Below are positions 5,882-63,091 of a stretch of 64,000 nt of DNA, piece by piece (the stretch's first letter is position 1; each line of letters starts with the position of its first letter). The stretch covers positions 1,335-65,334 of the forward strand of contig CAWCPY010000017.1 in the NCBI GenBank assembly GCA_963797385.1. Direction: 5' to 3'. The DNA comes from Terriglobia bacterium. GTDB taxonomy: Bacteria; Acidobacteriota; Terriglobia; Terriglobales; Acidobacteriaceae. The notes below the pieces were generated by a model. That model saw nothing but the letters and a program-made list of their open reading frames with translations, had not been told where the DNA came from and did not search any database. A program made the translations under genes and the position numbers.

Positions 5882-6003
5882 CCACGTGGGGACAGCCGCC
5901 CTCGGCTGTCCGGCGGAGCAACGCTCCGCTGGTTTTGCGCTTGCATCAAAGGCCGTCGAGCTCTCGCTCGACCGGACAGCCGAGGGCGGCTGTCCCCACG
6001 CGG
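5882..6003. repeat. four-hairpin REP-like element, full copy
   Basis: CCACGTGGGGACAGCCGCCCTCGGCTGTCC GGCGGAGCAACGCTCCGC ... GTCGAGCTCTCGCTCGAC CGGACAGCCGAGGGCGGCTGTCCCCACGCGG. Confidence 0.9.
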
Positions 6004-10720: not shown

Positions 10721-10833
10721 CCGCGTGGGGACAGCCGCCCCCGGCTGTCCGGCGGAGCGAAGCTCCGCTTTCATGGCGCAACAAATGTCGAGCTCCGCTC
10801 GACTGGACAGCCGGGGCGGCTGTCCCCACGCGG
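10721..10833. repeat. four-hairpin REP-like element, full copy
   Basis: CGCGTGGGGACAGCCGCCCCCGGCTGTCC GGCGGAGCGAAGCTCCGC ... GTCGAGCTCCGCTCGAC TGGACAGCCGGGGCGGCTGTCCCCACGCGG. Confidence 0.9.
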
Positions 10834-25135: not shown

Positions 25136-25293
25136 GTAGGCGCGGGCGCCCCCGCCCGTGCAAGGGGCACCACGAGCCGCGTGGGGACAGCCGCTTCCGG
25201 CTGTCCAGCGGAGCAAAGCTCCGCTAGTGTGCTCGCCAACCCCCGTCGAGTTGCGCTCGACTGGACAGCCGAGGGCGGCTGTCCCCACGCGGC
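25136..25293. repeat. GC hairpin (GTAGGCGCGGGCGCCCCCGCCCGTGCAAGG) plus full four-hairpin REP-like element
   Basis: CGCGTGGGGACAGCCGCTTCCGGCTGTCC AGCGGAGCAAAGCTCCGC ... GTCGAGTTGCGCTCGAC TGGACAGCCGAGGGCGGCTGTCCCCACGCGG. Confidence 0.85.
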
Positions 25294-50734: not shown

Positions 50735-50851
50735 CCACGTGGGGACAGCCGCCCTCGGCTGTCCAGCGGAGCGAAGCTCCGCTATCTTCCATGGGTAAAC
50801 CCCGTCGAGCTGCGCTCGACCGGACCGCCGAGGGCGGCTGTCCTCACGTGG
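50735..50851. repeat. four-hairpin REP-like element, full copy
   Basis: CCACGTGGGGACAGCCGCCCTCGGCTGTCC AGCGGAGCGAAGCTCCGC ... GTCGAGCTGCGCTCGAC CGGACCGCCGAGGGCGGCTGTCCTCACGTGG. Confidence 0.9.
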
Positions 50852-59426: not shown

Positions 59427-59665
59427 GGTGCCCCATTCATTCGCATCTTTTGCGAATGAGTGGGGTGACTGGCGGGTGGGCCAGGGTTTTGACCCCTCTG
59501 GCACCATAAACATAGTGGTTGCCCCGTCCTTTGCGCACTTTGCAAAGGGCGGGGAGCTGGAACGCATACGCGACTGGGTTGCACAACAGGCGAAAGTTGT
59601 GTCGGCAGCATCGCGACCCGCCCTTGCAAAAAACGCAAGGACGGGGCATCCTCGGCACAGTTAGC
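59427..59665. repeat. composite hairpin repeat (CCCGTCCTTTGCG..TTGCAAAGGGCGGGG type)
   Basis: Hairpins CATTCGCATCTTTTGCGAATG, CCCCGTCCTTTGCGCACTTTGCAAAGGGCGGGG and CCCGCCCTTGCAAAAAACGCAAGGACGGGG. Confidence 0.65.
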
Positions 59666-59730: not shown

Positions 59731-59778
59731 GCGGAGCCCTGCTCCGCCGGACAGCCGAGGGCGGCTGTCCCCACGTGG
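59731..59778. repeat. half four-hairpin REP-like element
   Basis: GCGGAGCCCTGCTCCGC CGGACAGCCGAGGGCGGCTGTCCCCACGTGG. Confidence 0.8.
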
Positions 59779-59797: not shown

Positions 59798-60400
59798 TCA
59801 GTTCTTCAGCTTTTGCCGCTCGCACGCCTCCACGGTTTTCGTCGGATCGACCGCCTCATTGTCGACTTGTTCGTTGATGATCTTCCCTGATTTGTCGATG
59901 AGGAAGGTGGCGCGCCTGGCGGTTTCCATGGGAACACCCTGAATATCAAATTTCTGAGTGAGTCCATACCGGCTGGTGACCGGGCCTCCCCAGTCGCCGA
60001 GGATGGGAAAGCTGATTCCGTTTTGTTGCGCGAAAGCAAAGTTTGAGAAGGGACTGTCCATGCTCACACCCAGAACCTGGGTGTCTGCGCCCTCCAGCCT
60101 GGCGATGTTCTGCTGGAGAGCTTTCATTTCGCGGGTTCAACCCCCGGTGAAGGCGAAGACGAAGAATGCCAGGGCGACGCTTTTCTTCCCGCGGTAATCC
60201 TGCAACGATATTTTCTTCAGCTCCTTGCCATCGAAGGCCAGCAGAGTGAAATCCGGAGCCATGTCGCCCACCTTGAGTTTCATGGGCGCAGGCGCTTTTT
60301 CGTCCTTGTTCTGGGATTTATTTTGGGCCTGCAAGAATGAAGGCACCAACGCAAGGGTTAGAAGCCACAGACAGACAACATGTTTCCACGCTACTTTCAT
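59798..60400 (-). CDS. secreted AhpC/TSA-type peroxiredoxin with in-frame TGA at the peroxidatic position (candidate selenoprotein)
   Basis: ORFs 60137..60400 and 59798..60127 share one frame and are separated only by TGA (60137-60139) plus 3 codons. The joined sequence reads ...ALAFFVFAFTGG[TGA]TREMKAL...VLGVSMDSPFS...RRATFLID. Confidence 0.7.
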
Positions 60401-62943: not shown

Positions 62944-63091
62944 CCACGTGGGGACAGCCGCCCCCGGCTGTCCGGCGGAGCAATGCTCCGCTATTCTGGT
63001 GAGGCAATGAATTTGTCAGGAATAAACTATCGGGCGATAGATTGTCGAGCTGCGCTCGACTGGACAGCCGGGGGCGGCTGTCCCCACGTGG
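62944..63091. repeat. four-hairpin REP-like element, full copy with long spacer
   Basis: CCACGTGGGGACAGCCGCCCCCGGCTGTCC GGCGGAGCAATGCTCCGC ... GTCGAGCTGCGCTCGAC TGGACAGCCGGGGGCGGCTGTCCCCACGTGG. Confidence 0.9.

Follow-up and report, generated by a model that had tools for sequence, protein, structure and literature searches.

Peroxiredoxins in which selenocysteine (Sec) replaces the peroxidatic cysteine (Cys) of the TxxC motif, the TxxU peroxiredoxins (PF00578 / COG1225), are an established prokaryotic selenoprotein family with one experimentally shown member and hundreds of predicted ones (PMC13188914, PMC1088965, PMC5029168). The experimentally shown member is PrxU of Eubacterium acidaminophilum, and many predicted members come from Deltaproteobacteria, Clostridia, and marine metagenomes. 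The consensus bacterial Sec insertion sequence (SECIS) is a hairpin with an apical loop of 3-9 nucleotides (nt) on an (upper) stem of 4-16 base pairs (bp), a G among the first two loop nucleotides and usually a G or U after it, a distance of 16-37 nt from the UGA to the apical loop, and a folding energy of -7.5 kcal/mol or lower (PMC13188914). Acidobacteria are among the phyla with selenoproteins (PMC1794560), and Occallatibacter riparius, a cultured member of the Acidobacteriota, is listed as a Sec user (PMC12013277). Here, we describe a peroxiredoxin gene on a 64,000-nt stretch of DNA from a Terriglobia bacterium (contig CAWCPY010000017.1; hereafter the window). The gene very probably encodes an exported, periplasmic BCP/AhpE-like enzyme whose peroxidatic residue is a selenocysteine specified by UGA codon 88. 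An earlier note, made from the letters of the window alone, had proposed this gene as a candidate selenoprotein and had remarked that Sec-for-Cys peroxiredoxins are known in some bacteria. The remark refers to the recognised TxxU family (PMC13188914, PMC1088965), and the proposal is now supported by a conserved TGA, its place in the active-site column, selection at the RNA level, and a linked selA gene.

A peroxiredoxin gene with an in-frame UGA at its active site

Two open reading frames (ORFs) of the minus strand, 60137..60400 and 59798..60127, share a single frame and are separated by the TGA (60139-60137) and three codons, ACC CGC GAA. Joined, they translate into 200 amino acids (aa) and a stop, including GDMAPDFTL, AFFVFAFTGG and TREMKAL on the two sides of the TGA, VLGVSMDSPFS, and RRATFLID, so that the coordinates, frame, and motifs of the single AhpC/TSA peroxiredoxin put forward in the earlier note are all reproduced. 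A Pfam search of the joined protein, run with Cys placed at codon 88, matches AhpC-TSA (PF00578, E=6e-30, residues 44-175) and Redoxin (E=9e-19). Mechanical ORF lists give two pieces because the first ATG 3' of the TGA comes only three codons on. The fragmented automatic calls that had been anticipated are indeed found in public annotation, which divides the homologues into two short genes, an N-terminal fragment of 79-87 aa (among the calls listed) and a fragment of ~110 aa. A protein search returned more than 100 matches of ~110 aa from Terriglobales and Thermoanaerobaculia, starting at the Met three codons past the TGA, along with a few full-length database proteins that carry tryptophan (W) or glycine (G) at the TGA column. 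The features of the locus are collected in Table 1.

Table 1. Features of the peroxiredoxin locus; positions are those of the window unless a locus handle (L) is given.
Feature	Position	Strand	Description
Peroxiredoxin gene	59798..60400	minus	200 codons and TGA stop at 59800-59798; reads through in-frame TGA, codon 88
Predicted Sec-type signal peptide	60326..60400	minus	Residues 1-25, MKVAWKHVVCLWLLTLALVPSFLQA then QN; putative cleavage site
UGA codon 88	60137..60139	minus	Predicted selenocysteine at the peroxidatic position of T-G-G-U
Hairpin 1	60089..60121	minus	10-bp stem with one G-U, 13-nt loop; -17.3 kcal/mol alone; 5' arm 60121-60112 GCUCUCCAGC, loop AGAACAUCGCCAG, 3' arm 60098-60089 GCUGGAGGGC
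Hairpin 2	60066..60084	minus	ACACCCAG-GUU-CUGGGUGU; perfect 8-bp stem; -11.4 kcal/mol alone
Arg162-Arg163	59912..59917	minus	Both in 84/84 homologues; includes the conserved active-site arginine of peroxiredoxins
Cys193 (TGC)	59822..59824	minus	Cys in 84/84 aligned homologues; also in Cys-form relatives
tRNA gene, CAT anticodon	60455..60530	minus	54 nt upstream of peroxiredoxin start; ARAGORN; Rfam tRNA 75.8 bits
REP-like palindromic repeat copy	59749..59772	minus	26 nt downstream of peroxiredoxin stop
REP-like copies, all	5888-5911, 5974-5997, 10727-10750, 25183-25206, 25263-25286, 50741-50764, 50822-50845, 59749-59772, 62950-62973, 63062-63085
selA, Thermoanaerobaculia	L050 10632-11978; L054 10600-11730; L056 12318-13439	opposite to peroxiredoxin	Downstream of peroxiredoxin

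The conservation of codon 88 was followed in 87 loci, all from Acidobacteriota, which comprise the window, 6 loci from contig look-ups, and 80 from the scan of a collection holding one genome per species. The scan gave at least 581 related stretches, of which the best 80 were kept; all are metagenome-assembled genomes of Acidobacteriota, being species-representative genomes of Terriglobia and Thermoanaerobaculia from different samples. Residue counts given below refer to 84 distinct homologues and RNA pair counts to 81 distinct sequences. The 86 loci homologous to the window are full-length tblastn matches with 54-95% protein identity to it, and their alignments extend through the TGA into the sequence on either side of it. 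At the position of codon 88, 87/87 loci, the window included, have TGA, each locus being from a distinct assembly and species. The gene itself ends in TGA in 47/87 loci, in TAG in 22/87, and in TAA in 18/87. Because TGA terminates the same gene in 47 of the 87 loci, it is still read as a stop in the organisms that carry the gene, and the invariant TGA at codon 88 together with the use of TGA as terminator therefore excludes code reassignment as well as nonsense mutation and sequencing error. A sequencing error is untenable with the same TGA in 87 independent assemblies. True Cys homologues are more distant; TGT or TGC stands at the codon 88 column in 38 of them, 3 of which came from the first protein search (TGT, TGT, TGC) and 35 from a metagenome pattern search that required TGY at this place.

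The separate short genes in public annotation are what would be expected of a pseudogene, a dead peroxiredoxin gene that survives as two ORFs and whose TGA arose by nonsense mutation or in the assembly. That explanation has practically nothing left to it, as the TGA recurs in 87/87 independent loci, whose proteins diverge by up to 46%, the gene has no other disruption and is conserved on both sides of the TGA, the active-site residues are invariant, and RNA-level selection, described below, acts downstream of it. It was rejected on the further ground that the homologues come from different samples and species representatives and are not copies of one assembly. The case for a simple nonsense mutation had been framed in the earlier note as relatives that carry a Cys codon without conservation of the hairpin. 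The opposite is seen, with TGA in all 87 loci, protein conservation on both sides, and the hairpins kept.

A change of the genetic code, with TGA read as Trp or Gly in the carrier organisms, would account for proteins in the JGI database that show W (P0001, P0002, P0005, P0008-P0011) or G (P0006) at the TGA column, but it is hardly credible given the stop-codon usage of the family. Besides the terminal TGA in 47/87 loci, on which this explanation was rejected, the W-type database proteins continue beyond the true C-terminus with unrelated residues (P0001 reaches 286 aa), and code 11 gives neighbouring genes of ordinary length. The proteins P0001, P0002, P0005, P0006, P0008-P0011, P0016, and P0017 all stem from short metagenome contigs, have W or G at the Sec position, and in some cases run past the true stop. 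These translations are consistent with a gene caller having picked code 4 or 25 owing to the in-frame TGA.

The TGA falls on the catalytic residue of the fold. In alignments to solved structures, residue 88 coincides with the peroxidatic Cys of 2ywn and of AhpE (5id2), and in 3hjp the aligned residue is Ser, in what is apparently an active-site mutant. These alignments and the TGT or TGC of the 38 Cys homologues bear out the placing of the TGA at the peroxidatic Cys of TxxC that had been suggested from the motif. Thr85 is invariant in the 84 distinct homologues, as are Arg162, Arg163, Cys193, and U88 itself. Cys193 is a candidate resolving cysteine, which might form a selenenyl-sulfide with U88. 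Position 81, occupied by Pro in the PxxxTxxC/U motif (window codon 60160-60158), holds Val in 67 of the 84 homologues, Ile in 16, and Pro in a single one; the lack of Pro is a trait of the clade, because two of the three nearer Cys relatives also carry Val there. The N-terminus reads as a signal peptide: the n-region is basic, a hydrophobic core follows, and the end is A-x-A-like. A hydrophobic segment lies ahead of the mature domain in 83/84 distinct homologues (11-aa Kyte-Doolittle window, >= 1.6). The enzyme is probably exported, since this basic-hydrophobic segment with its A-x-A-like end is kept so widely.

Two hairpins downstream of the UGA

The two hairpins that had been drawn in the mRNA from the letters alone are present with the same positions and pairing, and RNAfold recovers both. 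The stem of hairpin 1 begins 15 nt past the UGA and its loop 25 nt past it; hairpin 2 sits 4 nt beyond hairpin 1, and its loop begins 60 nt past the UGA. An 83-nt stretch that was folded reaches -35.7 kcal/mol compared with -25.4 +/- 3.2 kcal/mol for dinucleotide shuffles (z = -3.2), and 1/200 shuffles was as stable (RNAfold). An alignment of the 81 distinct sequences has no gaps in the 90 nt around the UGA. In it, standard pairs fill 90.5% of the cells of hairpin 1 and 99.8% of those of hairpin 2, against 28-45% after a shift of the partners by 1-3 columns. Given no structure, RNAalifold finds a 6-bp core of hairpin 1 and all 8 pairs of hairpin 2. Pair 28-54 of hairpin 1 is U-A in 54 sequences, C-G in 19, and U-G in 4, and hairpin 1 has one clear compensatory pair, UUC(Phe)...GAA versus CUC(Leu)...GAG; the 19 C-G cases may trace to one ancestral event. 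Some Thermoanaerobaculia versions of hairpin 1 gain an inner 5-bp stem with a 3-nt loop, GUC. Every orthologue examined has the TGA together with both hairpins, and this recurrence in other genomes is the chief evidence against chance.

Hairpin 2 is fully paired in 80/81 Sec forms and in 0/38 Cys forms, and the Cys forms retain 1-8 of the 10 pairs of hairpin 1. Hairpin 2 is the more strongly constrained element and is specific to the UGA forms. Its core was also sought in ~1.5 Mb of related DNA as a possible general SECIS sequence of the lineage, which is ruled out, as the core is essentially confined to the peroxiredoxin gene.

The same constraint is visible in the choice of codons. Synonymous-site diversity comes to 0.04-0.23 for the stems, compared with ~0.50 for the rest. 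Synonymous diversity was taken per codon among the sequences carrying the majority amino acid; outside codons 89-113, its median is 0.50 and 1/92 columns falls below 0.1. It is low at 3/5 scored stem codons of hairpin 1 (Phe95 0.07, Gln96 0.02, Leu102 0.08) and at the stem codons of hairpin 2 (Asp106 0.02, Thr107 0.09, Gln108 0.00, Leu110 0.07, Gly111 0.00), and the loop codons remain variable (Asn98 0.48, Leu99 0.76, Val109 0.54). Despite the GC-rich genome, Gly111 is GGT in 84/84 Sec forms, and Gln108 is CAG in 84/84 and Thr107 ACC in 80/84; among the Cys forms, GGT is used for Gly111 in 10/38. Constraint at the nucleotide level is present only where the codon is UGA, and the contrast between Sec and Cys forms is qualitative.

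The specificity of hairpin 2 also bears on whether the gene is split, with translation stopping at the TGA and restarting at the ATG of codon 92 to give an exported 87-aa piece and a cytoplasmic 109-aa piece. Met92, three codons past the TGA, is near-invariant, as a restart would have it. The same Met occurs in the Cys homologues and in a solved archaeal enzyme (TKEM), so it belongs to the family and did not evolve as a start codon. A Shine-Dalgarno sequence at a suitable distance is lacking, the two pieces would end up in different compartments without the catalytic residue, and the retention of hairpin 2 only where the codon is TGA is left unexplained. A split gene is thus very improbable and was rejected on the family character of Met92, the lack of a usable Shine-Dalgarno sequence, and the restriction of hairpin 2 to TGA forms.

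Selenocysteine machinery, decoding of the UGA, and gene surroundings

The machinery for Sec insertion was sought by tblastn with E. coli SelA, SelB, and SelD on the collected loci and the window, and by ARAGORN on 86 loci; only selA was matched. The window portion 53.1-64.0 kb is colinear with three relatives at 85-91% nucleotide identity, and in those three selA lies ~5 kb past the point that matches the window end. One relative has selA and the split peroxiredoxin gene 8.7 kb apart on a single 315,622-bp contig. In Thermoanaerobaculia, selA adjoins the peroxiredoxin gene in L050 and L054 and lies ~1.8 kb off in L056 (Table 1); the L050 copy matches Pfam SelA at 3e-117. These positions hint at a selenium-related gene neighbourhood in Thermoanaerobaculia. 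L061 gave two weak selB/selD matches, which proved to be release factor 3 and ThiL. Next to the L050 gene, ORFs of 634 and 352 aa were considered as SelB and SelD but encode pyruvate:ferredoxin oxidoreductase subunits. Within the 64-kb window, no sel gene and no tRNA-Sec was detected (tblastn; ARAGORN), and selB is not beside selA in the one relative in which 10 kb beyond selA were looked at.

Several results count against Sec insertion at codon 88 or lessen the weight of the evidence for it. The genome search suggested in the earlier note found selA linked to the gene in relatives, but selB, selD, and tRNA-Sec were not found in ~1.5 Mb of flanks around the homologous loci, and selA alone is an imperfect marker of Sec use, to which Helicobacter is an exception (PMC5029168). 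Conserved amino acids account for part of the stem pairing, hence the partial hairpin 1 in Cys forms. The synonymous difference between the stems and the rest of the gene gives a Mann-Whitney p = 1e-5, a value that overstates independence, the sequences being related. Neither hairpin alone agrees with the consensus SECIS throughout. For hairpin 1, described earlier as SECIS-like, the 25-nt spacing and the energy are inside the consensus and the distance to the UGA is indeed usual, but the 13-nt loop is outside it; this loop starts AGAAC, with G at position 2 and A as the next letter. Hairpin 2 has a 3-nt GUY loop, an 8-bp stem, and an energy inside the consensus, and a 60-nt spacing outside it. 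Covariance models, which had also been proposed as a check, gave no support, as an Rfam search of 59950-60250 at E <= 10 returned no SECIS family, only chance-level matches to a plastid untranslated region and archaeal snoRNAs. The bacterial SECIS models of Rfam are lineage-specific, so the missing match weighs little.

A UGA that is recoded, but not as Sec, could also explain a conserved codon followed by conserved hairpins. Cys might be inserted by a SelB-delivered, tRNA-Sec-like tRNA-Cys, or Trp or Cys by near-cognate read-through aided by the hairpins. There is reportedly a precedent for the first route, SelB-dependent insertion of Cys at UGA by a non-canonical tRNA-Cys in other bacteria. 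The lack of selD and tRNA-Sec in the flanks and the misfit of the hairpins to the standard SECIS model lean the same way. Such recoding is nonetheless improbable, since two separate lineages have the gene linked to selA, known for its role in making Sec-tRNA(Sec), TGY would suffice for Cys and is what the more distant homologues use, and the exchange of the peroxidatic Cys for Sec is a documented pattern of the family (PMC13188914).

With Sec as the preferred reading of codon 88, a pathway can be outlined. SelB carrying Sec-tRNA(Sec) would be recruited by RNA structure in the 75 nt past the UGA, and the codon would be read as Sec instead of stop; hairpin 1 would stand just outside the mRNA entry of the ribosome while the UGA occupies the A site. 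The mature enzyme would reduce peroxides at the selenolate of T85-G-G-U88, together with Arg162/163, and would be recycled probably through a selenenyl-sulfide between U88 and the invariant Cys193.

A second TGA-interrupted gene of the AhpC/TSA family stands beside the peroxiredoxin in Thermoanaerobaculia (L005 9147-9683, minus strand, and the same region in L004). It has the motif YRGYW-U-PYC, of the UxxC type, and in NCBI annotation it appears either as a single shorter gene or broken into two fragments. A single hairpin, GUCCGGCA-GGU-UGCCGGAC, starts 9 nt past its UGA. No further candidate with a redox motif emerged when TGA-interrupted ORF pairs with a GC pattern like that of coding sequence were scanned in the window, a list that is dominated, at 60% GC, by antisense frames of real genes.

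Three divisions of labour between the hairpins are conceivable. Hairpin 1 may serve as the SECIS, assisted by hairpin 2; the SECIS may instead be hairpin 2, with the folded hairpin 1 serving as a spacer; or Sec insertion may depend on both. The second arrangement, a two-part SECIS outside the consensus model in which hairpin 2 would bind SelB and the 33 nt of hairpin 1 would be folded away, is put forward tentatively and is more doubtful than not. It is suggested because hairpin 2 is synonymously invariant in the 84 Sec forms and broken in 38/38 Cys forms, and because the neighbouring UxxC gene of Thermoanaerobaculia has a single GGU-loop hairpin at normal distance. Folding of hairpin 1 would shorten the way from the UGA to the hairpin 2 loop to ~15 + 4 + 8 = 27 nt. 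The pair of hairpins with its poor consensus fit is the only part that a specialist might find unexpected.

The surroundings of the gene vary. No conserved partner gene was found beside the peroxiredoxin, and neighbourhoods differ among lineages. The tRNA gene upstream of the peroxiredoxin has the same arrangement in loci L007-L010, L013, L014, and L019. The linkage takes two layouts, with a tRNA(CAT) of 76 nt immediately upstream in the clade of the window and one of 77 nt immediately downstream in many Acidobacteriaceae; the tRNA lies just downstream in L035, L038, L046, L047, L064, L066, and L069-L085. ARAGORN labels this CAT tRNA as tRNA-Met, and its sequence may resemble that of the lysidine-type tRNA-Ile(CAU). 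At ~1330-1400 of L091, a relative whose SelA is 95% identical to that of L007, the peroxiredoxin gene is gone and only the 5' half of the tRNA is left, abutting AT-rich DNA; the junction suggests that an element has inserted into the tRNA gene or that the site has been rearranged. The peroxiredoxin gene may be co-transcribed with the tRNA, since the stretch separating the tRNA from the start codon yielded no sigma-70-like promoter.

At the other end of the gene, a copy of a palindromic repeat like the repetitive extragenic palindromes (REP-like; Table 1) may act as a transcript-end hairpin. Beyond it, ~145 nt past the peroxiredoxin stop, stands a terminator-like hairpin with a T-run (59636-59654, minus strand). 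The repeat, GGGGACAGCCGCCCTCGGCTGTCC, occurs in 10 copies in the window against 0 expected. The copies lie in intergenic spacers, mostly as inverted pairs spaced 80-110 nt apart, and similar elements are present in the relatives L008 and L013.

Comparison with known selenoproteins and peroxiredoxins

The gene family is present in hundreds of Acidobacteriota species of soil and peat, as judged from the stretches matched in the one-genome-per-species collection, and databases store it as two fragments or as W/G read-through artefacts. Its function, and the selenium dependence of abundant soil bacteria, are invisible to standard pipelines for this reason. The family suggests that Terriglobia and Thermoanaerobaculia have a defence against peroxides in the cell envelope that depends on selenium. 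The two separately conserved hairpins past the UGA offer a natural test of how far a bacterial SECIS can reach across intervening structure. The established picture of selenoprotein biology is left unchanged.

As in the fdhF SECIS of E. coli, a stem-loop lies in the coding region shortly past the UGA. Hairpin 2, CCCAG-GUY-CUGGG, with a G-U loop closed by CA...UG, resembles the GCA-GGUC-UGC of fdhF. The GGUC loop of fdhF lies at nt 22-25 counted from the U of the UGA, whereas the comparable loop here lies at nt 64-66, with a 33-nt hairpin between. The peroxiredoxin-like thiol:disulfide oxidoreductase selenoproteins of the UxxC type belong to the same Pfam family, and one of them adjoins the peroxiredoxin in two Thermoanaerobaculia contigs. 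They differ in having Sec as the first residue of a thioredoxin-like W-U-P-Y-C motif and a single canonical GGU hairpin 9 nt past the UGA. From this neighbour, SelB of at least the Thermoanaerobaculia appears to use ordinary G-G-U loops, to which hairpin 2 is closer than hairpin 1.

On the protein side, the best matches among solved structures are Cys-type BCP/PrxQ and AhpE enzymes (Sulfolobus tokodaii 2ywn; Mycobacterium tuberculosis AhpE 1xvw/5id2; E = 2e-25 to 4e-19), together with the archaeal Bcp-type 3hjp. The alignment to 2ywn and AhpE is colinear across the whole domain, with the peroxidatic Cys on codon 88, and the window protein belongs to the BCP/AhpE-like branch; unlike it, those enzymes use Cys, are cytoplasmic, and are without the C-terminal segment bearing Cys193. 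The window protein is not an orthologue of PrxU, because it scores 68.4 bits against NCBIfam NF040737, far under the curated cut-off of 270. With the TxxU family as a whole it shares the AhpC/TSA fold, Sec in place of the peroxidatic Cys, the conserved Arg, a stem-loop in the coding region, and widespread Cys homologues. The Acidobacteriota proteins differ from that family in their predicted signal peptide, their invariant C-terminal Cys, the Val/Ile in place of the Pro of PxxxTxxU, and two conserved hairpins where one is usual, and they form a new, widespread, and mis-annotated clade of the known TxxU selenoproteins.

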